From Candidatus Dormiibacterota bacterium (lineage in GTDB: Bacteria > Chloroflexota > Dormibacteria > Aeolococcales > Aeolococcaceae), in contig CAWBSL010000001.1 of assembly GCA_963791435.1 (NCBI GenBank), forward strand, positions 1,553,817 through 1,617,816: 64,000 nt of DNA, read 5' to 3'. Within the stretch, counting starts at the first letter, position 1; the number at the start of each line of letters is the position of its first letter. A program made the position numbers and the translations under genes. The notes under the pieces were generated by a model. It saw nothing but the letters and a program-made list of their open reading frames with translations. It did no database searches and had not been told where the DNA came from. This document shows, piece after piece, positions 23,131-52,033 of this stretch.

Positions 23131-23834
23131 GTGACGACGCCACCGGCAACACGAGACGTGCATTTCCCGTCGCGAGGCTCCACCTTCGGCGCCTCCTGGC
23201 GTTGCCCGACGGCGACGGACCGCACCCCGGCGTCGTGGTCATTCACGAGGCATTCGGTCTCAACGCCAACATCCGAGACATCGCCAGGCGGTTCGCGAGC
23301 GAGGGCTATGCGGCGCTTGCCGTCGACCTCTTCACCGATCACAGCCGGGCCGTCTGCATGGCGCAACTCATGCGGTCGATGCTCACCGGTCGCGAGCCTG
23401 CATCGATCCAGGACCTTGCTGCCTCGCTCGACTATCTGAGTGGGTTGCCCGAGGTCGACGGAGAACGCGTGGGTGCCATCGGGTTTTGCATGGGCGGCGG
23501 CTTCGCAATCGCGTGGGGTCGCCGGGACCGCCGCCTGCGCGCGATCGCGCCCTTCTACGGCACCAATCCGCGCCCCGTTGAGGCGATCCGCCGCATGTGT
23601 CCTGTCGTGGGCAGTTACCCGGGCAAGGACTTCACCGCGCGCTCCGGTCGCAGGCTCGACAAGCATCTCGCCGAGATCGGCGTCGCGCGCGACATCAAGG
23701 TCTACCCGGGCGCGCGCCACTCGTTCTTCAACGACACGGGCAAGCTGTATGACGCCGAAGCCGCGACGGACGCGTGGCAACGGACTCTCGACTTCTTTGC
23801 CGAGCACGTGCGAACAGTGCGCGCACCGCAGTGA
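23131..23834 (+). pseudogene. dienelactone hydrolase family protein, interrupted by a 1-nt deletion-type frameshift near 23190-23200
   Basis: The frame starting at GTG 23131 gives VTTPPATRDVHFPSRGSTFGA. The downstream frame gives LALPDGDGPHPGVVVIHEAFG...GFCMGG...H (catalytic triad region). Restoring one base (gcctcctg to gcctacctg) yields the canonical ...STFGAYLALPDG.... Confidence 0.7.
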
Positions 23835-24424
23835 CCGAACCGATCGACGTTCGCGAGCGTCGTGAGATCTGCGACCTGTTCGTCGAAGTCGGGCCCGACG
23901 CTCCGACACTGTGCGAAGGATGGACGACCGCCGATCTTGCCGCGCACCAGGTGCTTCGCGAGCACTTCCACCGCTGGCCCGATGCAAAGCTGGCGGCCGA
24001 GAAAGCCAAGGGGTTTCCCGCGGTGGTGGCGCGTCTGCGCGCCGGTGCACCGCTGATCCCGTGGCGCATCCCACGCCTTCGCAACGTCCTCAACGGCTTG
24101 GAATTCTTCATCCACCACGAGGACGTGCGCCGCGCCAACGGACGTGAGCCACGTCCCGCGATGCCTGACCTGGAAGCGCTGTCGTGGCGGATGTCGGGAT
24201 ACAGCGCACGCCGGATCGCGCGCGCGATCCGCCCCTGCGGGATCGAGCTGGTCAACCCGGACGGCGCGAAGCGAAGCTTCGGGTCGGGAGCGATGGCAAC
24301 CCTCACAGGACCGGCAACGGAGATCGTCCTCTACATGAGCGGCCGGAGGGCCACGGCGCACGTCACCCTCAGTGGCAATCCCGACGCTGTCGCTGCAGTC
24401 GAGCGCACCAAACTACGGGTCTGA
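23831..24424 (+). CDS. TIGR03085-family protein (mycothiol-dependent maleylpyruvate isomerase-like N-terminal domain protein)
   Basis: GTG overlaps the preceding stop (GTGA). ...RRERAEICDLF.E.GPDAPTLCEGWTTADLAAHQVLRE. Confidence 0.7.
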   Translation: MTEPIDVRERREICDLFVEVGPDAPTLCEGWTTADLAAHQVLREHFHRWPDAKLAAEKAKGFPAVVARLRAGAPLIPWRIPRLRNVLNGLEFFIHHEDVRRANGREPRPAMPDLEALSWRMSGYSARRIARAIRPCGIELVNPDGAKRSFGSGAMATLTGPATEIVLYMSGRRATAHVTLSGNPDAVAAVERTKLRV

Positions 24425-24461
24425 GCCGTCAGAAGCGGCGTCGAGCGCATGGGGAGAGTTC

Positions 24462-24860
24462 GTGACTGAGTCGGTGACCCGGATGATGGCCGATGACTCC
24501 GCGTCGCGGTCGCTCGGTATCGAGGTGCGCGACGTCTCCGTGGGAGCAGCCACGGCGACCATGACGATCCGCGCAGACATGGTGAACGGACACGGCATCA
24601 CGCACGGCGCATTTGTCTTCGCAGTCGCGGACACCGCGTTCGCGTGCGCGTGCAACAGCCACGGTCCGCTCACCGTCGCAGCCGCGGTGGACATCGCCTT
24701 TGTCGCGCCCTCGCGTCTGGGGGACGTGCTCGAAGCACGAGCCGTGGAACGCACTCGATTCGGTCGCTCCGGGATCTATGACGTGACCGTGCGACGTGGC
24801 GACGACGTCATCGCCGAGTTTCGTGGAACCAGCCGTACCATCGGCAAGGACAGCCTGTGA
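24462..24860 (+). CDS. paaI: PaaI-family hotdog thioesterase
   Basis: GGGGAGAG RBS, GTG start. ...GIEV..V..G.A...M.....N.HG..HGG..F..AD.A.A.A.NS pattern. 132 aa. Confidence 0.75.
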   Translation: MTESVTRMMADDSASRSLGIEVRDVSVGAATATMTIRADMVNGHGITHGAFVFAVADTAFACACNSHGPLTVAAAVDIAFVAPSRLGDVLEARAVERTRFGRSGIYDVTVRRGDDVIAEFRGTSRTIGKDSL

Positions 24861-26167
24861 GCCGCCTCGGCGCCGCGCCCCCGCCAGAGCTCCTCGACGC
24901 GGGAGAACGCCTGAGCCGGGACGCCTTGCTCGCGCTCCAGCTCGAGCGGTTGCGCTGGTCGCTGCGTCACTCGTACACGAACGTGCCCCATTACCGCAGC
25001 GCGTTCGATGCCGCGGGCGTCACCCCGGATGACTGCGAAAGCCTTGCCGACATCGCGAGATTCCCCTTCACCACCAAGGCCGATCTCCGCGACCATTATC
25101 CGTTCGGCATGTTTGCGGTGCCGCAGCCGGAGGTGCGCCGCGTGCACGCGTCCAGCGGCACGACAGGGCAGCCGACGGTGGTGGGGTACACGCAGGACGA
25201 TCTCGACATCTGGGCAGATCTCATGGCGCGGTCGATACGCGCCGCCGGTGGTCGCCGCGGCGACATCGTGCACGTCGCATACGGATACGGACTCTTCACG
25301 GGAGGGCTCGGTGCGCACTACGGCGCCGAGCGACTCGGCTGCACCGTCGTTCCGATTTCAGGTGGGATGACGCCGCGACAGGTACAGCTGATCCGCGATT
25401 TCCAGCCCGCGATCATCATGGTCACGCCGTCATACATGCTCGCGCTCATCGACGAGTTCGAGCGCCAGGGCGTCGACCCGAGGACCTGCTCGTTGCGCAT
25501 CGGCATCTTCGGCGCGGAGCCCTGGACCGAGGCGATGCGTGGAGAGATCGAGCAGCGGCTGGACATGCACGCGGTGGACATCTACGGGCTGTCCGAGGTG
25601 ATGGGACCGGGCGTGTCCCAGGAATGCGTCGAGACCAAGGATGGCCTCCACGTCTGGGAGGACCATTTCTACCCGGAGGTGATCGACCCGGTGAGCGGCG
25701 AGGTGCTTCCGGACGGGGAGACCGGCGAGCTGGTGTTCACGTCATTGACCAAGCAGGCGCTGCCGATCATTCGCTACCGGACCCGCGATCTCACGCGGCT
25801 GCTGCCAGGCACGGCGCGTCCGGCTTTCCGGCGCATGGAGAAGGTCACGGGGCGGAGCGACGACATGATCATCCTGCGCGGTGTCAACGTCTTTCCCACG
25901 CAACTCGAGGAGCTCGTCGTCGGCACCGGCGGCCTCTCGCCGCACTTCCAGCTGATTCTGGGACGCGACGGTCGCCTCGACACGCTGACGGTGCGCGTCG
26001 AGGCTCGTCCGGACTGCGCGCCCGACCGCCGTGTCACCGCCGCGAGCGTCCTGGCGCGCGAGGTGAAGGACCGCGTCGGGGTCAGCGTTCTCGTGGAGGT
26101 CGTCGACCCCGAGACCCTCGAGCGTTCAGCCGGCAAGCTCCAGCGGGTGATCGACCGCCGGTCGTAG
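24857..26167 (+). CDS. paaK: phenylacetate--CoA ligase
   Basis: GTGA overlap with paaI. SSGTTGQPTVVGYT, YGLSE and PaaK C-terminal domain. 436 aa. Confidence 0.9.
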   Translation: MSRLGAAPPPELLDAGERLSRDALLALQLERLRWSLRHSYTNVPHYRSAFDAAGVTPDDCESLADIARFPFTTKADLRDHYPFGMFAVPQPEVRRVHASSGTTGQPTVVGYTQDDLDIWADLMARSIRAAGGRRGDIVHVAYGYGLFTGGLGAHYGAERLGCTVVPISGGMTPRQVQLIRDFQPAIIMVTPSYMLALIDEFERQGVDPRTCSLRIGIFGAEPWTEAMRGEIEQRLDMHAVDIYGLSEVMGPGVSQECVETKDGLHVWEDHFYPEVIDPVSGEVLPDGETGELVFTSLTKQALPIIRYRTRDLTRLLPGTARPAFRRMEKVTGRSDDMIILRGVNVFPTQLEELVVGTGGLSPHFQLILGRDGRLDTLTVRVEARPDCAPDRRVTAASVLAREVKDRVGVSVLVEVVDPETLERSAGKLQRVIDRRS

Positions 26168-26218
26168 ACTGCGCCAGCCGATCACCAAGTCAGAGCGGGT
26201 CACGGGAGGTATCTCGGG

Positions 26219-26686
26219 GTGGATCGCTTTCTCCTGTACCGGACCTTCGACGAGCTGGAGGTCGGGCAGACCCAGCGCACCCGGGGCCGGACCATCACCG
26301 AGGGCGACATCGTCAACTGGTGCGCGCTCACCGGGGACTGGTTCTACCCGCACATCGACAAGGTGGCGGCGGAGCGATCGATGTTCGGGCAGCGCGTCGC
26401 GCCGGGGATCATGGTGTTCGCGCTCGGCACCGGACTCGGCGTTCCGGCCGATGCCACCACGATCCTTGCCAATTACGGCACCGACCGTCTTCGCTACACC
26501 GCACCGACGTGGATCAACGACACCATCTATCTCGACATCGAAGTGGTTGAGAAGTCCGACAAGGACCCGAAGTCCGGACTGGTGACGTATCGCTGGGACA
26601 TCCTCAACCAGAACGCCGTCACCGTCTGTGCGAGCCAGCTCAAGATCCTCACCGCCAAGGAGCGCGCCGCGTATGCCGGAATCTGA
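26219..26686 (+). CDS. MaoC-like (R)-specific enoyl-CoA hydratase/dehydratase (hotdog)
   Basis: RTITEGDIVNWCALTGDWFYPHID...FGQRVAPG. Confidence 0.8.
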   Translation: MDRFLLYRTFDELEVGQTQRTRGRTITEGDIVNWCALTGDWFYPHIDKVAAERSMFGQRVAPGIMVFALGTGLGVPADATTILANYGTDRLRYTAPTWINDTIYLDIEVVEKSDKDPKSGLVTYRWDILNQNAVTVCASQLKILTAKERAAYAGI

Positions 26687-27465
26687 CGGCGGCCCTGTCC
26701 TGCTGACGATCGATGGCGGCGTCGCGGAGTTGGTGCTCAACCGGCCGGACAAGATGAATGCGATGAACCTCGAGATGGTTCACGACATCGCCGAGAGCTC
26801 TCGACGCCGTCGAAGCGGCCGGTGCGCGGGCCCTGCTGGTGCGCGGCGAGGGGCGTGCGTTCTGCAGCGGGCGCGACCTGGCCGGCGCGGATCCGCTCCA
26901 CGAGGACGGCGAGGCGATCCTGCGCGACGTGTTCAATCCCCTGATCGAGCGGATGGCCGGCGTCGCGGTGCCGACCATCGCAGCGGTGCACGGCGCCTGT
27001 CTCGGCACGGGCCTCGGTCTCGCCCTTGCATGCGACATCGTCTATGCGGCTGATGACGCCCGAATCGGCTCGCCGTTCGCGCGCATCGGTGCGGTGCTCG
27101 ACAGCGGCGCGCACGCGGCGTTCGTGTCGGGCGTCGGATCGCATCGGGCGCTCGAACTCGTCTACACCGGACGACTGCTCTCCGGCCGCGAGGCGGCGGA
27201 GTGGGGGCTTGTCAACCGCAGCGTGGCCGGCGCCGACCTCGTCCGGCGTGCACGCGAGGTGGCCGCCTCCATCGCACGAGGGCCGACATCGGCCTTCCTC
27301 GAGTTGAAGCGTCTGGTGCGGGCCATCACCGACGGCTCGCCGTCCTTTGCGGACGTGCTCGCCGCCGAGGCCGCGGCGCAGGGACGCGCCTCGCGAACGC
27401 ACGACTACCAGGACGGCATCTCGGCGTTCCAGGAAAAGCGCAAACCGTCCTTCACGGGCCACTGA
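26673..27465 (+). pseudogene. enoyl-CoA hydratase/isomerase (crotonase), interrupted by a 1-nt insertion-type frameshift near 26793-26800
   Basis: The ATG at 26673 overlaps the MaoC stop. MPESDGGPVLLTIDGGVAELVLNRPDKMNAMNLEMVHDIAE continues in the +1 frame as ALDAVEAAGARALLVRGEGRAFCSGRDL...VPTIAAVHGACLGTGLGLALACD. An extra base sits in gccgagAgctctc. Confidence 0.75.
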
Positions 27466-27473
27466 GCGCGCAG

Positions 27474-28286
27474 ATGAGCGACCTCGCCACCGCATTTCCC
27501 AGCCTCATCTTCGACCGTCCCGAGGACGGGGTCCTGGTGATCACGATGCAGGCGGAGGGCCGCCTCAACGCCGCCGATGCAGCGATGCACCGCGACCTCG
27601 CCGAGGTCTGGCGCGCGGTGGACACCGACGCCGAGACGCGCGCGGTCATCATCCGCGGCGCGGGCGGGACCTTCTCCGCGGGAGGCGACTTCGACCTCAT
27701 CGAGTCGATGGTCGCGGACTTTGCGGTGCGCGCCCGGGTGCTCCGCGAGGCGCGAGACCTCGTCTACAACGTCATCAACTGCAGCAAGCCCATCGTCTCG
27801 GCGATGGACGGGGTGGCGGTCGGCGCCGGGCTCGTGGTCGGCCTGCTGGCGGATATCTCGATCGCCGGACGATCTACCCGTCTCATCGATGGTCATACGC
27901 GGATCGGCGTCGCCGCCGGCGACCATGCGGCGATCATCTGGCCGCTGCTTTGCGGCATCGCCAAGGCCAAGTACCACCTCCTGCTCTGCGAGCCGGTGAG
28001 TGGTGAGGAGGCGGAGCGGATCGGCCTTGTCTCGCTGAGCGTTCCCGACGATCAGGTGCACGCCAGGGCACTCGAGGTCGCTCGAAAGCTCGCGGCCGGG
28101 TCGCCGACGGCGATCAGCTGGACCAAATACGCCCTCAACAACTGGCTGCGGGCGGCCGGTCCGATCTTCGACAGCTCGCTCGCCCTGGAATTCCTCGGCT
28201 TCACCGGGCCCGACGTCGTCGAGGGTGTGGCCGCGAGACGCGCCAAACGGCCGGCGGATTTCGGCGACCGCGGTCCGCAGCAGTAG
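27474..28286 (+). CDS. enoyl-CoA hydratase/isomerase family protein
   Basis: [19 protein letters not shown]...[21 protein letters not shown] crotonase motifs. 270 aa. Confidence 0.8.
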
Positions 28287-28297
28287 GATCGAAGCAC

Positions 28298-29419
28298 GTG
28301 AGTGTGGAGGTGTCGTCGGCGACCAGTGGGCCGTCCTCATTTTCAGGGCCGTCGAAGGCCGCCTGGCAGGACGTCGCAGCTGAGGGATCCCTCAGCCAGG
28401 CGCTTCCCCACGACGTCGAGCTGACTCACGACCAGCTCCGGAGCCTCTACCGGCTCATGGCGCTGAGCCGGCGCATCGACCGCCAGGCGATCAACCTCAC
28501 TCGCCAGGGTGCGCTCGGGGTCTTCGCCTCGAGCCACGGCCAGGAAGCCGCCCAGGTGGGTTCGGTCTTCGCGCTCGAGGCCGACGACTGGCTCTTCCCC
28601 ACCTACCGCGAGACCGTGGGAACGTTCGCGCGCGGCGTGGACGTCGTCGAGCTCCTCGCGCTGTTCTCGGGGAGCTGGCACTGCGGTTTCGACCCGTATC
28701 AGTACCGGGTGGCGCCGCTCACAACGCCGCTCGCCACCCAGGCGCTGCACGCGGTCGGACTGGCGATGGCCGCGAAGATCAAGCACGATCCGATCGTCGC
28801 GCTCACCTTCTTCGGGGACGGCGCCGCCAGCGAGGGCGATGCCCACGAGGCGATGAACCTGGCCGCGGTCTATGCGGCGCCGGTGGTGTTCGTCGTCCAG
28901 AACAACGGCTACGCAATCAGCGTTCCGTACCACCTGCAGACCAAGGCCTCCTCGGTAGCGCTGCGCGCGGCAGGGGTTGGGATGCCCGGTATCCGCGTCG
29001 ACGGCAACGACGTCATCTCCGTGTACGGCGCGGTTCGCACTGCGGTGGAGCGAGCGCGGCGCGGCGACGGACCGACGCTGGTGGAGGCGGTCACCTACCG
29101 CCTCGAGGCGCACACCACGGCCGACGACACGAGCCGCTATCGCAGCGACGACGAGGCCGCGGGGTGGCGGGAGCGCGATCCGGTGGCCCGGTTCCTCGGC
29201 GTCCTTCTGGAGGCAGGCGTCGTCGACGAATCGTTTCTCGCGGAGGTCGACGCTGAAGGCGAGGCCGAGGCCGCGCGGATGCGCGACTTCCTGTTCGGCG
29301 CCCCGGCCGGCGATCCTCGCGAGATGTTCGACCACGTGTATGCCACGCCGACCCCGCTGCTCGAGGCCGAGAGGGCGATGCTCCAGCAGGAGCTCACGGC
29401 CGCCGAGGAGACGACCTGA
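28298..29419 (+). CDS. 2-oxoacid dehydrogenase E1 component alpha subunit (TPP-dependent; branched-chain/pyruvate type)
   Basis: [39 protein letters not shown]-binding motif, YR.EAHTT.DD. Confidence 0.9.
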
Positions 29420-30393: not shown

Positions 30394-30394
30394 T

Positions 30395-33319: not shown

Positions 33320-33326
33320 CAACGCC

Positions 33327-34439: not shown

Positions 34440-34449
34440 CGTCAAACCC

Positions 34450-35977: not shown

Positions 35978-36954
35978 GCCGCAGCGCTGGACGTCGCGTG
36001 CTTCGCAGCATACGCAGCCGCGGCCGCGCGCACCCACGCACCCTCCTCTTGCGCTTTGCGGTGATGCTCGGCGCGCTGGCGGTTGCACGGTCCATCGCCG
36101 CCGACGACGCGACGCAACTCCTCGAAATCGGGTTCGCCGAAGTCGTAGTGTCCGCGCTCCTGATTCCAGCGAAGGTCGAGGTCGGGGGGAACAAGACCGA
36201 GCACCACCGCCTGCGGCGCGACCATGTCGACGAATCGCTGCCGCAGCTCATCGTTCGAGAAGCGCTTGATGCCCCACGCCATCGATTGCGCGCTGTGCGT
36301 CGACTCGGTGTCGGGCGGGCCGAGCATCTCGATGGACGGCCACCACCAGCGGTTGACCGCGTCCTGCGCCATCGCGTGCTGCTCGGGCGTCCCATGCGAC
36401 AGGGCGTACAGCGACTCGAATCCCTGGCGCTGATGGAAGGACTCCTCCTTGCAGACGCGCACCATCGCCCGCGCGTACGGGCCGAATGAGCAGCGACAGA
36501 GGGGGATCTGGTTGGTGATCGCCGCACCGTCGACCAGCCAGCCGATCGCTCCCACGTCGGCCCAGGTGAGCGTCGGGTAGTTGAAGATGCTCGAGTACTT
36601 CTGCCGTCCCTGGTCGAGGAGGTCGATGAGCTCGGCGCGGTCCACGCCGAGGGTCTCGGCCGCGCAGTAGAGGTAGAGGCCGTGCCCCGCCTCGTCCTGC
36701 ACCTTGGCCATGAGGATCGCCTTGCGCCGCAGCGACGGGGCCCGGGTGATCCAGTTGCCCTCGGGTTGCATGCCGATGATCTCCGAGTGGGCGTGCTGCG
36801 CAATCTGGCGGATCAACGACTTCCTGTAGCCGTCAGGCATCCAGTCGCGCGGCTCGATGCGCTGGTCCGACTCGATCAGCGCCTGGAATTCGGCTTCCCG
36901 AACGCCGTCGCCGGCCGTCGCAACCCCCTCGTCGATCTGGCCCCGTGAACTCAT
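35974..36954 (-). CDS. paaA: 1,2-phenylacetyl-CoA epoxidase catalytic subunit A
   Basis: Nearly colinear with E. coli PaaA ([53 protein letters not shown]...). Confidence 0.92.
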
Positions 36955-38234: not shown

Positions 38235-38259
38235 GGCGGCGCTGACGCTCCGGAGACCT

Positions 38260-38456
38260 CTACTCGACGGCGAGCATCACGTCGGACGCCTTCACGATCA
38301 CGATCACGTCGCTGCCGGGCTTGATGCCGAGCTCGTCCACGGCGTCCACGGTGATCGCGGCTGTCATTGACATGCCGTTCACCACGACCGACACGTTGGC
38401 CGTGGCGGCACCGCGCGTGATCTGTCCACCCGACCGGGGAGCTTGTTGCGCGCGCT
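38260..38456 (-). pseudogene. TOBE/Mop (molybdopterin-binding) single-domain protein, interrupted by 1-nt deletion-type frameshift near 38407-38420
   Basis: GGGGAAGG RBS, then the ATG at 38456 gives MKISARNKLPGRVD. It shifts into the frame giving QITRGAATANVSVVVNGMSMTAAITVDAVDELGIKPGSDVIVIVKASDVMLAVE. Restoring one C (gtggacCagatc) gives a canonical 68-aa Mop protein. Confidence 0.65.
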
Positions 38457-38474
38457 GATTTTCATTGCCTTCCC

Positions 38475-38486
38475 CCGTGATCTGGC
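38475..38486. promoter_or_regulatory. perfect 12-bp palindrome ggcgatatcgcc upstream of Mop gene / divergent from small ORF
   Basis: Seen in the sequence. Position is consistent with an operator. Confidence 0.25.
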
Positions 38487-38618
38487 GATATCGCCCCAAC
38501 TCTAGCCCACGTCAAGAAGATGTGGCCGCGCAGGATCGAACGCGTCGAACGGAGCAACCGATGTGCGATGATGTTCGGGCGGCGTGCTGCTTCGGCATGG
38601 CGGAAGGGGGTTTGGTAC

Positions 38619-38834: not shown

Positions 38835-38846
38835 GTCAGCCCCGGA

Positions 38847-39260: not shown

Positions 39261-39267
39261 ACCCAAT

Positions 39268-40643: not shown

Positions 40644-40731
40644 GCATCGCTCGCGGCGTGCTCGAATCGCTCGATGGCACGCCTGCAGCCGGTGAGGTCC
40701 CGGGCTCCTGGCACGCTCATACTGTGCCACG

Positions 40732-41826
40732 TTGATCACACGTGAGATCCAGGTGACCCCGGACCAGCGAGCGGCGCTCGATGCCGCGCGCCGAGAGTTC
40801 TCCGCCGACGTCATCTTTCTCAACTCAGCAACGATGGGACTGCCGCCGCGGCGCACCATCAAAGCGCTGCAGGACTCGATGACCGAGTGGGCCTCCGGAA
40901 GAGGGGACGGCCCCGCATACGACATCCCGGTCGCGACAGCGCGGGAGCTGTACGCCGGCCTCGTCGGCTGCGACCCTGGAATGGTCTCGGTCGGCAGCCA
41001 GGTGTCGGTCTTCGCGGGCCTCATTGCCGCATCGCTGCCGCCAGGGAGTGAGGTCCTCACTGCCACGGGGGATTTCACGAGCATCCTGTTTCCGTTCCAT
41101 GCCCAGGCGGCTCGTGGGATCACGGTGCGCGAGGCGCCGCTCGAGCACATCGCCGATGCCGTCACGTCGCAGACGACGCTTGTCTCGGTGTCCGCGGTGC
41201 AGTCCGCCGACGGACGCATCGCGGATCTCGATGCGTTGACGGCTGCGTGTGCGGCAAAGGGGACTCGGATCCTGCTCGATACCACGCAGGCGGTCGGCTG
41301 GCTCCCAATTGATGCACGCCGGTTCGCGTACACCGTGAGCGGCGGATACAAATGGCAGCTTTCACCCCGCGGCACCGCGTTTCTCACCATCCAGCGTGAG
41401 CTGCTCGACGAGCTGACGCCGAACAACGCGGGCTGGTATGCCGGTGCCGAACGCTGGAGCAGCATCTACGGCGCGCCGCTGCGCCTCGCTGCTGATGCGC
41501 GCCGCTTCGACGTCTCGCCCGCGTGGCTTCCCTGGGTTGGTGCGGTGCCGTCGCTCGAGCTTCTCACCGACGTCGGCCGCGACGCATTGCACGCGCACGC
41601 CGTCGGCCTCGCACACCGATTCTGTGCCGGCGTCGATCTGCCGTACCACGGTTCCGCGATCGTCTCGGCCGTTGCAGACGCCGAGGTCCCCGCGCTGATG
41701 CGATCGGCCGGCATCGTCGGGGTCACCAGAGCCGGGAGGCTCCGTCTGTCATTTCATGTCTCAACGAGCCAGGAGGACGTCGACCGCACGGTCGAGGTGC
41801 TCTCCGGTCACCTGCGCTCGTCGTAG
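40732..41826 (+). CDS. class V (PLP fold type I) aminotransferase
   Basis: ...VIFLNSATMG..., SGGYKWQLSPRGTAFL (PLP-lysine region). 364 aa. Alternative GTG start at 40753. Confidence 0.8.
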   Translation: MITREIQVTPDQRAALDAARREFSADVIFLNSATMGLPPRRTIKALQDSMTEWASGRGDGPAYDIPVATARELYAGLVGCDPGMVSVGSQVSVFAGLIAASLPPGSEVLTATGDFTSILFPFHAQAARGITVREAPLEHIADAVTSQTTLVSVSAVQSADGRIADLDALTAACAAKGTRILLDTTQAVGWLPIDARRFAYTVSGGYKWQLSPRGTAFLTIQRELLDELTPNNAGWYAGAERWSSIYGAPLRLAADARRFDVSPAWLPWVGAVPSLELLTDVGRDALHAHAVGLAHRFCAGVDLPYHGSAIVSAVADAEVPALMRSAGIVGVTRAGRLRLSFHVSTSQEDVDRTVEVLSGHLRSS

Positions 41827-41870
41827 CGACGCGCGGTGCCCAACTCGCATCCATCAGAGGAGAGGACGCC

Positions 41871-43209
41871 ATGACCGTTCAGGTCACACAGAGCCGCATG
41901 ACCAGCGAAGAGATCGCGCGGTTGTCGAAGGAGCACACGTTCTTCTCGTGGTCGGTGCAGGGTGCAGTCGATCCCATCGCCATCGATCACGCGGAAGGAG
42001 TCTGGCTGTACACGCCTGAAGGCAGGCGCATCCTCGACTTCAACAGCCAGCTCATGTCGGTGAACATCGGACACGGCGACCAGCGGGTCGTGCAGGCGAT
42101 CACCGAGCAGGCCACCAAGCTGCAGTTCGTGCAACCGGCATTCGTCACCGAGATTCGCGCGCGCCTCGGTGAGAAGTTGACGTCGCTCCTGCCCGGAGAC
42201 CTCGACAAGGTCTTCTTCACACTCGGCGGGGCGGAGGCCATCGAGAACGCGATCAAGATCGCGCGTCAGTACACCGGCCGATACAAGATCCTCGCCCGGT
42301 ACCGCGCCTATCACGGGGCCACGATGGGCGCAATGACGCTGACCGGCGATCCACGCCGCTGGGCGACGGAACCCGGACTCGTCGGCGTTGTCCGGTATCC
42401 CGATACGCATCGCTGGGGTGAGCACGAACCGAGACCCGTGGCAGAAAGCCTTCAGGGTCTCGAGGACGTGATCCGTTACGAGGGACCGCACACCATCGCG
42501 GCCATCTTCCTCGAGACCATCGTCGGCACCAACGGCATCCTGATTCCACCGGACGGCTACATCCAGGGCGTCCGCGAGCTCTGCGATCGGCACGGCATTC
42601 TGATGGTCGCGGACGAGGTGATGGCGGGTTTCGGGCGTACGGGGAAGTGGTTCGCGGTCGAGCACTGGAATACCGTCCCGGACCTGATGACCATGGCCAA
42701 GGGTCTGACGTCCTCGTACCTGCCACTCGGGGCGGTGGCGATGCGCCGTCACATCGCCGAGAAGTTCGAACTCGATGATGTACTACGGCGGCCTCACGTA
42801 CTCGAGCCATCCCGTGTCACTCGCCGCGTCGCTGGCCACGCTCAACGTCTACGAGGAGGATCACCTCATCGAGCGCTCGGCTGCGCTCGGGCCGGTGATG
42901 CGCGCCCACCACGAGCGCCTGGCTGCGAAGCACCCGAGCGTCGGCACGCATCGCAACCTGGGGTTGTTCGGCATCCTCGATCTCGTGCGTCAGCAGGATC
43001 CGTACACGCCGATGACGGCGTTCAACGCGTCGAGCGGGGAGATGGCCGCCATCGGCAGGTATCTGCGCGAGCACGGCGTGTACACGATGATCTCCAACAA
43101 CTCGATCCATACCAACCCGCCGCTCTGCATCAGCGAGGACGAGCTCGCGCACGGATTCGAGGTCATCGACGGCGCGCTTTCGATTGCCGACAAGGCCGTT
43201 CTGGGCTAG
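41871..43209 (+). pseudogene. class III aminotransferase (omega-aminotransferase family), interrupted by 1-nt insertion-type frameshift near 42771-42785
   Basis: GGAGAGGA RBS then ATG. ...GGAEAIENAIKIAR...DEVMAGFGRTGKWFA...AKGLTSSYLPLGAV...AEKFELD continues in the +1 frame as MYYGGLTYSSHPVSLAASLATLNVYEE.... The extra base lies in the gatgatg repeat. Confidence 0.8.
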
Positions 43210-43238
43210 CGTCTGATCCCCCACGTGGTCGACCAGCC

Positions 43239-45887
43239 GTGAGCGACGACGCCGAGCGCGCGCAACTCCGTGATGATCCGGCCGGCTGGCGGCGCTGGGG
43301 TCCGTACGTCAGCGAGCGTGCCTGGGGGACGGTGCGCGAGGACTACAGCGCCGACGGTGACGCGTGGGCTTATATCCCGCATGACCAGGCGCGGTCGCGC
43401 GCGTTCCGCTGGAGCGAGGAGGGGCTCGGTGCGATCTGTGACGAGCACCAGTTGCTCTGCCTCGCATTCGCGTTCTGGAATGGCGTGGATCCCATCCTCA
43501 AGGAGCGCATCTACGGACTGACCAATCCGCAGGGAAACCACGGCGAGGACGCAAAGGAATACTGGTGGTACGTCGATTCGACACCGACGCACTCGTGGAT
43601 GCGCTGGCGGTATCTGTATCCCCACCTGGCTTTTCCCTACGACGATCTCCTCGCCGAGAACCAGCGCCGCAGCCAGCAGGAGCCCGAGTACGAGCTTGCC
43701 GACACCGGCGTGCTCGACAACGGTTTCTGGGACATCACGGCGGACTACGCAAAGGAGACGCCGGAGGATCTCGTGATCGAGCTCCGAGCCCGAAATACCG
43801 GCAGCACGGGACAGACACTGCACGTGCTGCCGACGGTGTGGTTCCGCAACACCTGGGTGTGGGGCATCACCGACACGGTCCCCTCATTGCATGTTGAGAA
43901 CCAGCGAATCGTCTGCGACCACACGGTTGTCGGCCGCATGTTCCTCACCGGCGACGGCGACTACACGCCGCTGGTCTGCGACAACGAGTCGAACGCGGCG
44001 CGACTCTGGGGGGCGCCTCCCCGAACCGCATTTCCCAAAGATGGCATCAACGACCACGTCGTCAACGGCGCAAGCACCGTCAACCCGGCGCAGGTGGGGA
44101 CGAAAGCCGCGCTCCACTACATACTCGAGGTCGAAGCCGGATCGACCGCGACCATCAGACTCCGCTTCGGTCGCCGCGAGACCGATGCCGTGGACGGTGC
44201 GGCGGCGGCGCTGGCATTGCGCCGGAGCGAGGCGGATGCGTTCTACGCGAGCCTCATGCCGGATCGCCTCACGCCGGACGAGCGTCTGGTGACGCGGCAG
44301 GCGCTGGGCGGCATGCTCTGGGGGAAGCAGTTCTACCACTACAACGTGACCCGCTGGCTCGACGGCGATCCTGCCGAACCTCCGCCGCCCGCCTCGCGAC
44401 TCGCAGGACGGAACGCCGGCTGGCGGCACGTCGACACGGCCGACATCATGTCGATGCCGGACAAGTGGGAGTACCCGTGGTTTGCCGCCTGGGACCTCGG
44501 GTTTCAGTGCGTCGCGCTGGCGCATGTCGATCCCGAGTTCGCCAAGGATCAACTCATCCTGCTGTGCCGCGAGTGGTACATGCACGCCAACGGACAGCTG
44601 CCCGCCTACGAGTGGTCGTTCGACGACGTCAATCCACCCGTGCACGCATGGGCGGCGCTGCGAGTCTTCGAGATTGACGGAGCAAAGGACTACCAGTTCC
44701 TCGCGCGAGTCTTCCACAAGCTGCTCATCAACTTCACGTGGTGGGTCAACCGCGAGGATGCCGAGGGCAACAACATCTTCGAAGGCGGTTTCCTGGGGCT
44801 CGACAACATCGGGCCATTCGACCGCTCGATGCTGCTTCCCGCGGGCGGTCATCTCGAGCAGTCCGACGGCACGGCATGGATGGCCATGTATTCGCTCAAC
44901 CTGCTCGAGATGGCGCTGATCCTCGCCACCTTCGATCGCGCATACGAGGACGTGGCCACGAAGTTCTTCGAGCACTTCGCGGCCATCGCAACGGCGATCA
45001 ACGAGCAGGGACTCTGGGATGAGGACGCGGGTTTCTATTACGACAGCTGGCGATTCGCCGACGGCACGCGAATCCCGATCCAGGCCCGTTCGATCGTGGG
45101 ACTCATCCCGCTCTGCGCCGCAACAACACTCGGCAACGACACGCTGAGTCTGTTGCCCGACTTTGCCGCGCGCCTGCGTCTGTTCATCAAGCTCAAACCA
45201 AGATATGCGGCTGCTGTCTCGCTCGAGCTCGAGGAGCGGGAACGCGAGAGCCGTCTGCTCGCGATCGTCGACCCGGAACGGCTGCGCCGCATCCTCTCGT
45301 ACGCGCTCGACGCGTCGGAGTTCCTCAGTGACCACGGGCTGCGTGCGCTTTCGCGATATCACGCCGACCATCCTCTCGACATCGATCTCGGCGGCATGGT
45401 GGCGCGCCTCGACTACGAGCCGGCGGAGTCGACGTCACGCCTCTACGGCGGCAACTCCAACTGGCGTGGGCCCGTGTGGTTTCCGGGCAATCATCTGATC
45501 GTCGAGGCGCTGCGTGTATACCACCGGTTTCTCGGCGACACCTGGACGGTCGAGTACCCGCGCGGTTCGGGCCGGCAGCACCATCTCGGCGAGGTCGCGG
45601 ACGATATCGCCGCGCGGCTTGCATCGATCTTTCTCCGAGCCGCCGACGGCATTCGCCCGGTGGTCGCGGGCATCGACCTCTACGCACGCCCGGACCTTGC
45701 CGACGCGATCCCGTTCCACGAGTACTTTCACGCGGAGACCGGCAAGGGACTCGGCGCGTCGCATCAGACCGGATGGACCGGGCTCGTCGCCGATCTGCTC
45801 CTGCGCAGGACCGCTTCACGCGACCGATTTGACATCGCCTCGCTCCGCGGCCCCGACGGTGCCGGGCCTCGTGAGGACCTGCACTAG
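43239..45887 (+). CDS. GH63-family (MGH1-like) glycoside hydrolase, putative glucosylglycerate/mannosylglycerate-type glucosidase
   Basis: 882 aa. [30 protein letters not shown] and (alpha/alpha)6 barrel motifs typical of GH63 (processing alpha-glucosidase/YgjK/GgH family). The 1454-aa ORF from 41523 is a read-through artefact. Confidence 0.78.
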
Positions 45888-45898
45888 ACTGCAACCTC

Positions 45899-46792: not shown

Positions 46793-47970
46793 AGGATTGC
46801 GGTTTCCACGACCGCTCCGGCCTGGGCGAAACGGCTGAGCCGCAGGGAATGCAGGTCGAATGTCGTGGACGCACCGTTGACGATCAACTCCGTGACGGCC
46901 TGTCCCGCCGCGAACGAGTGCATGATCCCGTGGCCGCCGAAACCGACGCACTGGACGAACCATGGGGTCTCTGCGGGCGCGTCGATGATGGCGTGATGAT
47001 CGGGTGTCTCGGGATAGAGGCCGGCCCAGCACTTGCGCGGGCTGATCGGGACATCCTCGAGGAACGGAAAGCGGTTGCCGACTCGTGCGGCGACGGCGTC
47101 GAGAAATGCAGGATCGAATCCCGTGTCGGTGCTCGGAGGATCGGTCGGGTCCGAGAAGCCGATGAGAAACCCGGCTCCCTCGCGGCGGATCAGCACTCCG
47201 GTGTCGTTGTCGACGCACATCGGAATCGCGTCGGCGATGCCGCTCACGGGCTCGGTGCATGCAAGGTTTCTCCGGCGGGAGATCACTGGCAGGTCGATGC
47301 CGGCCATCGCCGCGACCCCCCGCGCAAACGGCCCAGCGGCGTTGACGACGAACTCGGCCTCGATGTCACCTGACGTCGTGCGCACGCGGGCCGGCGAGCC
47401 GTGCGCGACGTCGAGCACATCGGTATCGAAGAGGAACGCGGTCTCGAGGCGCCGGCACTCCGCCCAGAGCGCGCTCACAACGCCGTGCGGGTCGATCACA
47501 CCATCTCCGGAGCAGAACGTTGCTCCGGACAGGCCGTCGACATTGACGAACGGCGTCTTCTTGATGACGTCGGCTGCCGAAAGCCACCGCACGTCCACGC
47601 CGAGGGAGCGCTGCAACTCCCAGCTTCGCCGGAGCGCGATCGCGCCGGCGTCGGTTCCGGTGAGGAAGAGATAGCCCACCGCACGGAAGCCCACCACGCC
47701 GCCAGAGATCTCGTGCAACTCCCGGAGCTTCTCGATCGTGAACTGCGAGAACGCGATGTTGATCGGTGTCGTGAACTGAGCCCGCACCCCGCCGTTCGCG
47801 CGGCTCGTCGATCCCATCCCGGCCGACGCATTGCGGTCGACGACCACCACTCCGTCGACGCCTGCTCGTCGAAGCTGCAGCGCCACCGCGAGACCGACGG
47901 CGCCTGCGCCGACGACCACGACACGGGCACGGCGCTCAGCGCGCGTCGCGACGGCGACCGGCCCGCTCAC
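46789..47970 (-). CDS. FAD-dependent oxidoreductase (DAO / sarcosine oxidase beta / glycine oxidase family)
   Basis: VVVGAGAVGLAVALQLRRAG dinucleotide motif. Convergent with the DapA-like gene (4-nt overlap). Confidence 0.8.
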   Translation of the reverse strand: MSGPVAVATRAERRARVVVVGAGAVGLAVALQLRRAGVDGVVVVDRNASAGMGSTSRANGGVRAQFTTPINIAFSQFTIEKLRELHEISGGVVGFRAVGYLFLTGTDAGAIALRRSWELQRSLGVDVRWLSAADVIKKTPFVNVDGLSGATFCSGDGVIDPHGVVSALWAECRRLETAFLFDTDVLDVAHGSPARVRTTSGDIEAEFVVNAAGPFARGVAAMAGIDLPVISRRRNLACTEPVSGIADAIPMCVDNDTGVLIRREGAGFLIGFSDPTDPPSTDTGFDPAFLDAVAARVGNRFPFLEDVPISPRKCWAGLYPETPDHHAIIDAPAETPWFVQCVGFGGHGIMHSFAAGQAVTELIVNGASTTFDLHSLRLSRFAQAGAVVETAIL

Positions 47971-49361
47971 CGCCTTCCTGCCCCGTCAACGGTCGTGAGC
48001 AGGGCGACGGGCAATCCACGGATGGAAGCGTCGAGCAACTCCACGGGGTGTACCACCGGCAGTGGATGCCCGGCCCGCCGCAGTCCCGCCTGGATCTGGA
48101 GCAGACATCCGCCGTTGCCGGCGGTGAGCAACTCCGCGCCGCTCACGATGACGTTGGCGGCCTTGCGAGCGCCGAGATCATCGGCGGCTTCCGGCGCGAC
48201 GAGGTTGTAGATGCCGGCGCTTCCACAGCAGACGTCCGACTCCTGCAGGGTCACGAGCTCGAGGCCGGGGATGCGATGCAGCACCTCCCGGGGTTGGAGA
48301 CGCACCCCCTGCGCATGCGCAAGATGACAGGCATCGTGATACGCGGCACGCGCGGGGAGCGGATGGAGTTGCGCAGGGAGTTGCACCTCGAGCTCGGCGA
48401 GTACCTCCATGACGTCGCGAACCCGTGCCGAGAACTGTGCGGCGCGTGCCGACCAGAATGGATCATCGGCGAGCAGCGCTCGGTACTCCTTCATCGCCGA
48501 CCCGCAGCCGGCACTGTTCACGACGATGTGGTCGATGTCGAGCGCCTCCATCTGCGCGATGAGGTTGCGCATCCGCTCCAGCGCGGGACGCTCGCGTCCG
48601 GCGTGGAGCTCGAGCGCGCCGCAGCAACTCTGCAGTGGCGGAACGAGCACTTCGCAGCCGTGCGCCGCGAGGACCCGTGCGGTGGCGCGGTTGACATGTG
48701 CGAAGAACGCGCCCTGCACGCAACCGGTGAGCACCGCGACCCGCTTGACCTGCCGGCCCTTCGGGACGAGGTGACGCGGTCCGCGGAGATTCATGTCAGC
48801 GACGCGAAGCGACGGTGCCATGTCATCGAGGCGACGGAGCGTCCGCGGAACCAGACGCTGCAAGGGCTTGACGTGCAACGCGGCGCGAAGTCCCACGGCC
48901 TGAGTCACCGCTACCGCGGAGGCGACCGTCCGCATCCGGCGCGGATGGGGAAGCACCGCGAAGAGTGCTGCGCGTGATGCTCGAGCCCGCCATGAGCGCG
49001 CGAACCGCCGTTCCACCTGCGGCCGGACCTGTTCGACGAGACGGTTGTACTGCACGCCGGATGGACAGGCGTCGACACACGCCATGCAGCCCAGGCACGC
49101 GTCCCAGTGGCGCACGACTTCCGTGCTCATCCCCACTTCGCCACGGGCCGCGAGATCCATGAGCAGGATGCGACCGCGCGGGGAATCCATCTCCTCGCCC
49201 CAGAGCAGATAGGTCGGACAGGCCGGCAGGCAGAAACCGCAGTGGACGCAGTCGGCGATCAGCGCCGGATCCGGCGCGTGATGGTCGTCGAAGGCAGCGG
49301 TTCTCGCGTCACCACGAGGATGCCCCTGGATCCGAGGCGGTCCGGCGCTCACCGCAGCCAC
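47967..49361 (-). CDS. glcF: glycolate oxidase iron-sulfur subunit / (Fe-S)-binding protein with two CCG domains
   Basis: CVHCGFCLPACPTY and CLGCMACVDACPSGV 4Fe-4S motifs plus CCG repeats. Confidence 0.85.
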   Translation of the reverse strand: MAAVSAGPPRIQGHPRGDARTAAFDDHHAPDPALIADCVHCGFCLPACPTYLLWGEEMDSPRGRILLMDLAARGEVGMSTEVVRHWDACLGCMACVDACPSGVQYNRLVEQVRPQVERRFARSWRARASRAALFAVLPHPRRMRTVASAVAVTQAVGLRAALHVKPLQRLVPRTLRRLDDMAPSLRVADMNLRGPRHLVPKGRQVKRVAVLTGCVQGAFFAHVNRATARVLAAHGCEVLVPPLQSCCGALELHAGRERPALERMRNLIAQMEALDIDHIVVNSAGCGSAMKEYRALLADDPFWSARAAQFSARVRDVMEVLAELEVQLPAQLHPLPARAAYHDACHLAHAQGVRLQPREVLHRIPGLELVTLQESDVCCGSAGIYNLVAPEAADDLGARKAANVIVSGAELLTAGNGGCLLQIQAGLRRAGHPLPVVHPVELLDASIRGLPVALLTTVDGAGRR

Positions 49362-49362
49362 G

Positions 49363-50584
49363 TCAGATGCCTCCAGCCTGGCGTCCGGGACTCAGTGTCC
49401 GCGATGGATCGAGCTGCAGCTTGACGGAGCGCATGAGTTCCAGCGCGACAGGGTCATCCACCACTCCGGCCGAGGGCGAATCGCCGCGTCTGATCACCAA
49501 GCGGCCGCCCACCGCGCGCACCGCTGCGCGAACGGCCCCAAGCGCTTCAGGCGCGAAGCACACCTCTCCGGTGCCGAGCAGGGGTCGGAATGCGATCGCC
49601 TCACATGTAGCAGACAGAGTCGACAGTAACTCGACGGCGCGCGGCGGCAGCACCGCAACGGCACACACCATCCCTCCGCCGTTCCACGGGGATCCGAGAA
49701 GCGACGCATACATCACGCCGGCCTCACCCTCTGCAAGGATCCGGCCTCCGACGTCGTGCACCACGCGCTCGGCCTGGACCGCGGCACCGGCCTCCGAGCT
49801 GTCGAACCGCACCAGTGCCACACCGTGTGGCCAGTGGATGTCGACGAGAGAGGGAGTCAACCTGCAGCCGACCCACGCGTGCGGCGAAGCCGCACAGCTC
49901 CGAGGTGGATCGCGACTCGAGGACGACCGTCCGTGAGGCATCGGGCACGGGATGCAGGCGGAAAGCCACCTCGGTGATGACCGCGAGCGTCCCGAGCGAT
50001 CCCACGAGCAACTTGGCGACGTCGAACCCCGCGACGTTCTTGACGACCTTGCCTCCGCTCCTGCCCACCGTGCCGTCGGAGAGCACGAAGCTCGCGCCGA
50101 TCACGAGGTCGCGCGCGGTACCGAAACGCGTGCGCAGCGGACCGCTCGCAGCGGTCGCGACGACGCCGCCGATGGTCGCAGCGCCTCCGTGGGGTGGATC
50201 GAGCATCAGACGCTGGCTGAATCCCGGGGCTGCGGCGAGGGTCTCCTGAAGAAGCGCGAGCGGCGTCCCCGCCCGCACCACGCAGACGAGGTCTGCGGGC
50301 TCGTGGTCGACGATGCCGGTGATGCGGGATGTCGAGAGCACGATCTCGCAGCGCTCAGGCGGCGAGCCCCACCCGAGCTTCGTGCCGCCACCACGCGCGA
50401 CGACCGCCAGGCCGCGGGCCGTCGCGGCCGACAGGACCGAGGCGACCTCAGCTTCGTCAGCGGGCGAAACGACAAGTCGCGGCATGACGCCGCCGACCGA
50501 GTCATCGGCGCCGGGCATTCGCACGTGCGCGGCGCCGACCAGCTCTGTGAACAGGCTCAATTCCTGCGACGTCGAGACCGTCAC
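49363..50584 (-). pseudogene. glcE: glycolate oxidase FAD-binding subunit, interrupted by 1-nt insertion-type frameshift near 49845-49870
   Basis: GTGA overlap with the glcD stop. FAD-binding PCMH N-terminal part ends ...ELCGFAARVGRLQV. The C-terminal part (...PSLVDIHWPHGVALVRF...LMRSVKLQLDPSRTL) is in the +1 frame. Confidence 0.75.
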
Positions 50585-52033
50585 AGCCGCTCCGCGAGTC
50601 CGGTCATCTCGATCGCGTGCGGCCGGTACATCCCGGGCACCTCGCCGCAGAGTTGCGGGGTGGGAAGCGCCTTGCCGGGGTTGCAGAGATCGCTTGCGTC
50701 GAACGCGTCGCGGACCCGCCCCATGACCGCAATCGAACCCGGGCTGAACATCTTCGGCATGTAGCAGGCCTTGTCGGATCCGACTCCGTGCTCGCCGGTG
50801 ATCGAGCCACCCGCGGCAATGCAGGACTCGAGGATGAGCCCCGCGAGCTCGAGCGCGCGAGCGGACGCGCCCGGCTCAGTGTCGTCGTACAGGACCAGCG
50901 GATGCAGGTTGCCGTCTCCTGCATGGAAGACGTTGGCGACGCGCAGCCCATAGCCGGCCGACAGGGTGCCGATCTCTTCGAGCACCTCGCGCAGACGAGT
51001 TCGCGGGATCACGCCGTCCTGCACGTAGTAGTTCGGGCTGATCCTTCCCATGGATGCGAACGCCGCCTTGCGTGCCTTCCAGATCAGCGCCCGCTCTGCC
51101 TCGCTCGCGGCCACCCGCGTCTCGGTCGATCCGCTCGCGGAACAGATGTCGAGCACCTGGCGAAGAAAGGCGCTCGAACTCGACTGCAGGCCCGTCGAGC
51201 TCGACGATCAGCGCGGCGCCGCAGTCCGGATATCCCGCGTGAACGATCTCCTCGCAGGCCTGGATCGCGAGACGGTCCATCATCTCGATGGCGGCCGGTG
51301 TGATGCCCGCAGCGATGATGCGTGACACTGCCTCGCCGGCGTCGCCCATTGTGGAGAATGCCGCCAGCACCGTCTCAGTCGACTCCGGAACGCGAACGAT
51401 GCGGAGCACAACCTCCGTCACGATGCCGAGCGTCCCTTCGCTGCCGATCACGACGCCCAGCAGGTCATAGCCGGGGGCGTCACGCACGGAGCCCCCGAGC
51501 TGCGCGATCTCGCCGCGCGCGGTGACGAAGGTCGCCGCCAGAACGTGGTGCGTTGTGAACCCGTACTTCAGGCAATGCGCGCCGCCCGAATTCTCGGCGA
51601 CGTTGCCCCCGATGGTGCACACCTGCTGCGACGATGGATCCGGTGCGTAGAAATACCCGAGTGGTCGCACCGCCTTGCTCACCTCGAGATTGGTGACACC
51701 GGGCTGCACGGTGACCTGCTGATTCTCGAGGTCGATGGCGAGGATGGCCCGCATCCGGCTCAGGCCGATCACAACGCCGTCTGCGACGGGGAGCGCACCA
51801 CCGGAAAGTCCTGTGCCGGCGCCGCGTGCCACGAAGGGCACGTTGCTGTCCGCACAGGCGCGGACGACCTCTGCCACCTGCTCTGTGGTGGTCGGGAGCA
51901 CAACCGCTGCGGGAGAGACGCGGCGGCCCGTGAGACCGTCGCACGCATACGTCTGCAATGCCGCGGGCTCGGTGATCATGCCGTCGTCGCCGACGGCGTC
52001 GCGCAGACGGTGCTGCAGCGCAACGTCAAGCAT
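50581..52033 (-). pseudogene. glcD: glycolate oxidase subunit (FAD-linked oxidase), interrupted by 1-nt insertion-type frameshift near 51150-51165
   Basis: N-terminal part (ARGAGTGLSGGALP... IVELDGPAVEFERLSS) joins C-terminal part (VLDICSASGSTETRVAASEAERALIWKARK...HAGDGNLHP) when one C is removed from tcgCcaggtg. The reconstructed linker matches the GlcD consensus. Confidence 0.8.

Follow-up and report, generated by a model that had tools for sequence, protein, structure and literature searches.

Six single-base frameshifts in a Dormibacteraeota assembly window are most likely long-read consensus errors

Systematic errors induced by base modification in Oxford Nanopore bacterial assemblies were reportedly described by Lohde et al. 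in 2024. In the accessible portions of two accounts, methylation-linked errors in Nanopore assemblies are documented at only some copies of a motif (PMC12392509; PMC11610603). The Microflora Danica long-read MAGs are Nanopore-only Flye assemblies that received one round of Medaka (PMC12313526). Here, we analyzed a window of 64,000 nucleotides from a soil bacterium, Candidatus Dormiibacterota, in which six genes are each interrupted by a single-base frameshift. We consider it highly probable (roughly 0.93) that all six arose as consensus errors in a metagenome assembly of the long-read, Nanopore type and are not biology.

Frameshift sites and the proteins they interrupt

Three-frame translation and comparison with relatives placed one single-base indel in each of six genes, four insertions and two deletions, as an earlier note on this DNA had proposed. 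The site positions given in that note were off by 0 to 23 nt (within about 25 nt); it was silent on the minus-strand location of Mop and on the motif association described below. A GC3 frame plot with Viterbi segmentation, too noisy alone to prove a frameshift, served only as a guide. The features concerned are the following.

23056-23834, plus strand: dienelactone hydrolase (DLH); a T is absent between 23195 and 23196, where the window reads GCCTC-CTGG
26673-27465, plus strand: crotonase (enoyl-CoA hydratase); surplus C at 26798, where the window reads GAGAG[C]TCTC
38260-38465, minus strand: Mop/TOBE molybdopterin-binding protein, 68 aa; a base is absent between 38424 and 38425
41871-43209, plus strand: class III aminotransferase; surplus A at 42769/70, GA[A]CTC where the intact reading is GACTC
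41871-45887, plus strand: artefactual chimeric ORF of 1338 codons, in which the aminotransferase N-terminus reads into an MGH1-like glycoside hydrolase
49363-50584, minus strand: glcE-like FAD-binding subunit; surplus A at 49859/60, plus strand GAGTCA[A]CC
50581-52033, minus strand: glcD-like FAD-linked oxidase; surplus A at 51177/78, plus strand CTCGA[A]CTCGAC where the intact reading has GACTC

The intact DLH allele is GCCTCTCTGG (CTC[T]CTGG), and that of crotonase is GAGAGTCTC, whose GAGTC motif is destroyed by the surplus C (GAG[C]TC). At Mop, the C absent from the plus strand corresponds to the G of a coding-strand GAG codon, leaving GA-. At the aminotransferase site, the intact reading would be TTCGACTCGATG and the frameshifted reading is TTCGAACTCGATG. 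Downstream, the glycoside hydrolase gene (43239-45887) lies in the same frame as the aminotransferase N-terminus, with no stop from 41871 to 45885; the chimeric stretch is listed as ORF 41523..45887 (1454 aa), and the glycoside hydrolase is called separately, at 882 aa, in assembly ERZ25039604. Homologues of the aminotransferase carry the JGI label taurine--2-oxoglutarate transaminase.

Restoring one base yields a single Pfam match spanning the junction in crotonase (ECH_1, residues 13 to 262), Mop (TOBE), the aminotransferase (Aminotran_3, residues 35 to 435), and glcD (FAD-oxidase_C, residues 216 to 454). The DLH junction falls just upstream of its Pfam domain, and homologues keep the conserved N-terminus 'TTPPATRDVHFPSRGSTF' in frame; the Mop junction region reads GRVEQITRG in relatives. 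The aminotransferase is a single ORF in more than 10 relatives, and glcE and glcD are likewise single ORFs in theirs. A search for further decay within the broken genes found no in-frame stops and no deletions. Downstream of the breaks, GC3 remains at 0.84 to 0.87 and full-length domain matches are retained.

Restored Mop and restored glcE (406 aa) have verbatim matches in the protein collection. For the restored forms of the aminotransferase, glcD, and crotonase, no exact match turned up in the same collection, probably owing to strain SNPs or start choice; glyoxalase, an intact window protein of 366 aa as translated, also lacked an exact match there, and sibling assemblies call it at 358 aa. 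The best homology-search matches were 96% identical for restored glcD and 93% for the restored aminotransferase, with no same-strain full-length copy among them. In metagenome_contigs, an exact-pattern scan for the glcD site gave no match, and a protein-guided scan for glcE recovered only relatives at ≤77% identity, which fed the census of other genes and not the same-strain check.

Programmed ribosomal frameshifting, transcriptional slippage, or phase variation at simple repeats, the first of which the earlier note had left open, has nothing in its favor beyond the existence of the frameshifts. In relatives, one uninterrupted frame encodes each of the six proteins, and programmed frameshifting is ruled out on that ground. 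Moreover, the sites contain runs of only 1 to 3 identical bases, with no slippery heptamer or long repeat, and both +1 and -1 changes occur, spread across six unrelated genes. We regard the probability of any such mechanism as negligible.

Intact alleles and private errors in same-species assemblies

Comparison with orthologous loci in close relatives, one of the checks that the earlier note had suggested, revealed an intact allele in public same-species assemblies (99.1 to 99.85% nucleotide identity) at every site except the aminotransferase, i.e., at 5 of 6. Logan contig L161 aligns to window positions 21174 to 25292 at 99.85% identity over 4120 bp, with 5 mismatches and a single gap, which is the DLH base. 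DLH is also intact, called at 259 aa, in ERZ25039590, ERZ25039604, and ERZ25039468; the same three assemblies read GAGAGTCTC at the crotonase site, where a 263-aa ECH_1 protein is called. For Mop, ERZ25039604 and Logan contigs from two further runs carry the intact gene; for glcE, ERZ25039590 and ERZ25039604 do. At glcD, ERZ25039604 encodes an intact protein (483 aa), while ERZ25039590 has the same surplus A as the window. Both glcD and glcE are thus intact in ERZ25039604, which speaks against the joint pseudogenization of these two genes that the earlier note had entertained. The window sequence differs from every assembly compared. In ENA, the contig names of the closest assemblies follow the Flye style, and the closest MAGs are Microflora Danica Nanopore MAGs; we infer a probable Nanopore origin for the window itself.

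The sibling long-read assemblies have private frameshifts of their own at positions where the window is intact. Private indels break PaaA in ERZ25039590 and both E1-beta and CofD in ERZ25039604; about 14 are found in ERZ25039468, and the glycoside hydrolase, GltB, and other genes are also broken by private indels across ERZ25039590, ERZ25039604, ERZ25039468, and ERZ25039497. Contig_18946 of ERZ25039497, at 3.03 Mb, represents a nearly complete relative. At 42001 and 54205, the window retains the conserved reading frame and other assemblies do not. The many indels of ERZ25039590 within 50.9 to 52.8 kb were considered as possible window errors and rejected, as ERZ25039604 matches the window there and the window frames are kept. 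Between 8.8 and 60.6 kb, all other indel differences to near-identical assemblies are errors of the other assembly or non-coding. Neither the near-identical assemblies over this interval nor the census of distant relatives revealed any further broken gene, so the claim that all other genes of the window are intact held for 8.8 to 60.6 kb; the window ends (1 to 8.8 kb and 60.6 to 64 kb) were covered by ORF inspection only. In relatives from MEGAHIT-, SPAdes-, and JGI-style assemblies, no supported frameshift was found across ~200 kb of homologous sequence.

These comparisons bear on whether the frameshifts are genuine strain-specific pseudogenes, that is, real indels with loss of DLH, crotonase, Mop, the aminotransferase, and the glycolate oxidase subunits. 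The frameshifts do stand in the sequence as given, the one in the aminotransferase occurs in four assemblies and the one in glcD in two, and the samples or strains differ by 0.15 to 0.9%, so that private mutations are conceivable. However, five of the six sites are intact in near-identical genomes, and the set of broken conserved genes differs from one long-read assembly to the next, with none broken in short-read-style relatives. A ratio of ~1 frameshift per 5 to 10 substitutions, unaccompanied by nonsense mutations or in-frame indels, is unlike natural decay, and codon bias and domain integrity persist downstream of the breaks. The link to GAGTC described below, which recurs at a homologous site in Nanopore MAGs of other species, also argues against pseudogenes, and we consider this explanation very unlikely. 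Taken together, the intact alleles in near-identical genomes, the private errors of each assembly, and the motif association point to error rather than gene loss, in line with the preference of the earlier note for residual long-read or MAG indel errors over true pseudogenes. On these sequence comparisons, at least five of the six frameshifts appear to be sequencing or assembly mistakes, and probably all six are. All six enzymes are almost certainly encoded intact in the organism itself.

Motif association and the aminotransferase site

All four insertions lie in or adjoin GAGTC/GACTC: GAG[C]TC in crotonase, GA[A]CTC in the aminotransferase and glcD, and GAGTCA[A] in glcE. Four of the six window sites thus fall at a motif occupying 1.15% of positions (binomial P = 2.6e-7, for a motif picked post hoc). 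The motif was chosen after inspection of the data; events in other assemblies subsequently confirmed it, with at least 9 private indels falling at GAGTC/GACTC. Mismatches between long-read assemblies are likewise enriched at the motif (9 of 45 for L169, P = 1e-8; 0 of 32 for Logan contigs). Motif-linked frameshifts also occur in two further Dormibacteraeota species represented by Nanopore MAGs: in one (L025), the homologous aminotransferase codon reads GAGT[T]C, and in the other (L001), GACT[T]C occurs twice. An insertion at the homologous aminotransferase position was seen only in sequences with GAGTC there. A general GANTC (CcrM-type) motif was rejected, as four Nanopore MAGs with GATTC at this position are unaffected. 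The DLH and Mop deletions fall outside GAGTC/GACTC, and a motif common to the two was also rejected, since TCTG is present at both but at different offsets.

We propose that the four insertions would be systematic errors at GAGTC/GACTC, usually by duplication of an A beside the A of GACTC. Judging from the error pattern, the underlying cause may be base modification at GAGTC, most plausibly m6A from a GAGTC-specific methyltransferase; the modified base would shift the pore signal, leading basecaller and polisher to insert one base too many at a few percent of the copies of the motif. The DLH and Mop deletions would be sporadic consensus errors. Alternatively, GAGTC/GACTC may be genuine indel hot spots in this lineage, where nicking or repair at a recognition site of PleI/MlyI/N.BstNBI-type restriction-modification could be the source. 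Some of the frameshifts would then be real, recurrent mutations, with the aminotransferase frameshift, common to four assemblies, as the foremost candidate. We regard such hot spots as highly improbable.

The aminotransferase site requires separate consideration. Its surplus A is common to the window and to ERZ25039590, ERZ25039604, and ERZ25039497, four long-read assemblies in all, and each of the latter three calls only a 144-aa aminotransferase fragment, an instance of the splitting or dropping of genes by annotation that had been anticipated. The databases searched hold no intact same-species copy, the best full-length protein being 93% identical. The identical insertion in four assemblies and the lack of an intact same-species record would fit a real, species-wide mutation of this gene alone, with the other five sites as errors. 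However, the change from GACTC to GAACTC is the commonest error class observed here, found also at 36302, 51177, 55668, and 57606 and, in complementary form, at 42001 and 43989, and two of those assemblies have a second motif-linked insertion within the same gene. The C-terminal 144 aa are still 82 to 88% identical to relatives, with a GC3 of 0.87, and all four assemblies look to be of the same long-read kind, so that a deterministic error would be common to them. A real mutation here is therefore unlikely in our view, and the aminotransferase is the only site at which we see a small possibility of a genuine frameshift.

Implications and comparison with known error classes

If the frameshifts are consensus errors, as we favor, gene loss has probably not occurred at this locus, and metabolic reconstructions should count DLH, crotonase, Mop, the aminotransferase, and glcD/glcE as intact genes. 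Annotation pipelines may otherwise call a false aminotransferase-glycoside hydrolase fusion of 1338 codons. More broadly, an error specific to GAGTC/GACTC seems to recur in MAGs of this phylum built from Nanopore data alone, and targeted or methylation-aware polishing could clear it. Indirectly, the error pattern also leads us to predict that several Dormibacteraeota species share a conserved GAGTC methylation system.

Three kinds of described lesion invite comparison. Pseudogenes of reductive genome evolution resemble the present case in that conserved metabolic genes are frameshifted. They differ in that here near-identical genomes are intact, neither nonsense mutations nor deletions are seen, codon bias is not relaxed, and the set of lesions varies from assembly to assembly and tracks a sequence motif. 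Homopolymer indel errors (PMC9262707; Homopolish, PMC8011154) are closer, since they too are single-base indels that break conserved ORFs and fragment gene calls, and are exposed by comparison with homologues. Unlike those errors, the window sites have runs of only 1 to 3 bases; the homopolymer class fits only the C-run error at 54205, an error of the other assemblies from which the window is free.

The third kind comprises the modification-induced Oxford Nanopore errors. As far as the available portions of the two accounts extend (PMC12392509; PMC11610603), GAGTC does not figure as an error motif, and its methylation in Dormibacteraeota would be a prediction of the present error pattern. The same portions describe substitutions, whereas single-base insertions dominate in the window. 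In other respects, the errors described (PMC12392509; PMC11610603) resemble those in the window: they concentrate at a short motif or a few bases from it, affect only some motif copies, survive Medaka-type polishing and persist in the consensus, and reappear at identical sites when assemblies are independent.

Detection and confirmation of the frameshifts

At 67% G+C the window is crowded with spurious ORFs, and for that reason three-frame translation was used at each of the following sites:

23056-23834 (+), dienelactone hydrolase (DLH); T lost between 23195 and 23196
26673-27465 (+), crotonase; insertion at 26798
38260-38465 (-), Mop; C lost between 38424 and 38425
41871-43209 (+), class III aminotransferase; insertion at 42769/70
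49363-50584 (-), glcE; insertion at 49859/60
50581-52033 (-), glcD; insertion at 51177/78

Five of the six breaks (crotonase, Mop, class III aminotransferase, glcE, and glcD) were visible by eye in these translations. The crotonase N terminus runs as "...LNRPDKMNAMNLEMVHDIAE" and then continues one frame on with "ALDAVEAAG...", and on the minus strand Mop reads "MKISARNKLPGRV" and then "QITRGAATANV...". The DLH break was harder to see because the Pfam DLH domain begins just past the junction; it was settled by homologues, which have the conserved N terminus "TTPPATRDVHFPSRGSTF(G/R)A(Y/S)LALP" within one reading frame. Once one base was added or removed, each protein gave a single full-length Pfam match, and matches to ECH_1, TOBE, Aminotran_3, and FAD-oxidase_C crossed the junctions of the restored proteins. 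DNA alignments with relatives narrowed the insertions to one duplicated base each. The six single-base frameshifts described in the earlier note are thus confirmed, and exact positions return the same tally of four insertions and two deletions.

Homology and exact-sequence look-ups found sequences 99.1 to 99.85% identical to the window, comprising same-species Logan contigs (runs ERR12916267, ERR10755948, and SRR28023569) and large contigs from four same-species ENA assemblies (ERZ25039590, ERZ25039604, ERZ25039468, and ERZ25039497). One Logan contig (L161) has five mismatches to window positions 21174-25292, and its only gap falls at the DLH site. The intact DLH allele is present in this contig and in ERZ25039590, ERZ25039604, and ERZ25039468, and the same three assemblies carry intact crotonase. 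Intact Mop was found in ERZ25039604 and two Logan contigs, intact glcE in ERZ25039590 and ERZ25039604, and intact glcD (483 aa) in ERZ25039604, while the extra A in glcD is common to the window and ERZ25039590. The protein collection contains verbatim copies of two restored products, Mop and glcE (406 aa). The extra A in the aminotransferase is common to the window, ERZ25039590, ERZ25039604, and ERZ25039497.

The window was assigned to Candidatus Dormibacteraeota by protein-guided scanning of species-representative genomes, in which the aminotransferase reached at best 92% identity; relatives are syntenic across 29 to 60.5 kb at 74 to 84% nucleotide identity. Microflora Danica (MFD) MAGs account for many of these relatives; they are Nanopore-only Flye assemblies with one round of Medaka polishing (PMC12313526). 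A tblastn census, with all ORFs from about 20 related loci as queries, recovered exactly three junctions supported by many relatives in 29 to 60 kb, namely, those in the aminotransferase, glcE, and glcD. Mop is below the census length; its "GRVEQITRG" is intact in three relatives. Comparison with orthologous loci, a check proposed earlier, supports the aminotransferase, glcE, glcD, Mop, and DLH breaks through single-frame orthologues. Programmed frameshifting, which the earlier note had left open, and slippage are now excluded, since orthologues are single-frame and the sites are without slippery or repeat tracts.

Private indels of the sibling assemblies

Pairwise indel tables showed that the other assemblies each break different genes, at which the window is intact. 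In ERZ25039590, PaaA is split, 4HBT is shortened, GH is truncated, and 50.9 to 52.8 kb is very noisy; in ERZ25039604, E1-beta is shortened and CofD is split; and ERZ25039468 carries some 14 insertions of its own within 22 kb, with two crotonases merged by an indel into a single call of 537 aa. The window is unlike both ERZ25039590 and ERZ25039604 at 42001 and 54205, and distant relatives confirm that the window keeps the conserved frame (AEGVWLYTP and a GGDEF domain, respectively). From these frames and the pairwise comparisons, we conclude that the coding lesions of the window over 8.8 to 60.6 kb are exactly the six reported. The earlier statement that all other genes are intact accordingly holds over that range, where same-species DNA was compared, while 1 to 8.8 and 60.6 to 64 kb were judged by ordinary full-length ORFs.

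The difference at 54201-54205 is an extra C in a C-run of ERZ25039590 and ERZ25039604, within the coding region of a response-regulator/GGDEF/EAL protein (ORF 53687-55708 of the window); since the window reads through "RLGGDEFAVLL," the extra C is a homopolymer error common to both assemblies. At 38610, immediately upstream of a hypothetical ORF of 71 aa, ERZ25039604 and Logan ERR10755948 have a single A following five Gs (GGGGG[A]TTT) that the window, ERZ25039590, and Logan SRR28023569 lack; this non-coding difference is either polymorphic or a homopolymer-adjacent error. In ERZ25039590 contig_49827, the equivalent of window 50.9 to 52.8 kb differs by about 5% from both the window and ERZ25039604 and holds some 20 one-base indels within 2 kb, the remaining contig being about 99.8% identical. 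This stretch may be either a poorly resolved mixed-strain consensus or a recombined segment.

The GAGTC/GACTC motif and the origin of the frameshifts

GAGTC or its complement, GACTC, contains or adjoins all four window insertions (crotonase, GAG[C]TC; aminotransferase, GA[A]CTC; glcE, GAGTCA[A]; glcD, GA[A]CTC). Counted with 1 nt on either side, copies of the motif make up 1.15% of the window (P = 2.6e-7 for 4/6 sites). Because the motif was spotted post hoc, independent events were used to test it. The private indels of other assemblies that fall at the motif number at least nine (9174, 24497, 28423, 36302, 42001, 43989, 55668, 56769, and 57606), most commonly as GACTC to GAACTC or its complement. 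Long-read mismatches are enriched there (9/45 in L169, a sibling-assembly locus, versus 1.4% expected; P = 1e-8), and mismatches to Logan contigs at the motif number 0/32. At the aminotransferase codon homologous to that near 42001, an insertion occurs only in carriers of GGAGTC, among them L025, a closed Nanopore MAG from another species; relatives with GGCGTC or GGTGTG there are without it. General GANTC was ruled out as the motif, GATTC at the aminotransferase site being unaffected in four Nanopore MAGs.

A reverse census, in which a frameshift had to be backed by at least four other loci, confined frameshifts to the window and three related loci, L001, L025, and L017. The first two are MFD Nanopore MAGs: of the three junctions in L001, two lie at GACT[T]C (~15167 and ~19289), and L025 has one at GAGT[T]C (~10127). 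The L017 junction, located at a run of N, was dismissed as an artefact. In relatives of MEGAHIT, SPAdes, or JGI style, which together gave about 200 kb, this census found no supported frameshifts. These results suggest that the motif is modified throughout the lineage and that such MAG catalogues contain a class of error that recurs and could be corrected.

Genuine strain-specific pseudogenes are very improbable: the conserved genes damaged would have to differ from strain to strain, at about one frameshift per 5 to 10 substitutions without nonsense or in-frame changes, and the same pentamer would have to be preferred across several species, yet in Nanopore data only. A real frameshift in the aminotransferase alone is unlikely. 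It would agree with the lack of a same-species intact copy in the databases searched, but the change is of the commonest error type, and a second motif-linked insertion is found in the same gene in two of the assemblies; this frameshift, too, is very probably an artefact, though with less confidence than the set as a whole. Private single-base indels, near-identical intact alleles, a cross-species motif confined to Nanopore data, and undisturbed downstream codon bias and domains therefore lead us to systematic consensus error, in support of the earlier preference for assembly errors over pseudogenes, and we put the overall confidence that these frameshifts are artefacts at 0.93.

In the cases described in PMC12392509 and PMC11610603, Nanopore errors from base modification affect a partial subset of motif copies and resist Medaka. 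Given such documented errors, we infer that GAGTC may be modified in this lineage, most plausibly as 6mA. The putative modification would produce systematic consensus error at some motif copies, and hence the four insertions, while the two deletions (DLH, CTC[T]CTGG; Mop, GGA[G]CAG), which are off the motif, would be ordinary sporadic errors. TCTG near the lost base was considered as a common cause of both deletions; the offsets differ, and it was unconvincing.

A false fusion ORF and the significance of the breaks

The aminotransferase frameshift opens a 1338-codon chimeric ORF (41871-45887, +) that joins the aminotransferase N terminus to a downstream MGH1-like glycoside hydrolase (43239-45887, same frame). 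This reading frame appears as a 1454-aa ORF in the window ORF listing, and automated annotation could report the chimera as a novel fusion protein.

Pfam marks on sibling contigs place phosphoketolase and acetate kinase, two adjacent crotonase paralogues, a MaoC dehydratase, an AMP-ligase, a branched-chain 2-oxoacid dehydrogenase E1/E2 set, and a paaABCDE phenylacetyl-CoA oxygenase cluster in 18.8 to 38 kb, and glcDEF and the F420 biosynthesis genes cofC, cofE, and cofD in 47 to 60 kb.

That the GAGTC/GACTC motif is apparently conserved among Nanopore MAGs of Dormibacteraeota is of technical use, and the error pattern predicts a GAGTC methylation system; neither lends the six "pseudogenes" interest of their own. 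The six frameshifts are very probably not a biological feature. Gene-splitting long-read indels and modification-linked errors are a known kind of artefact, and the six breaks of the window fit it.
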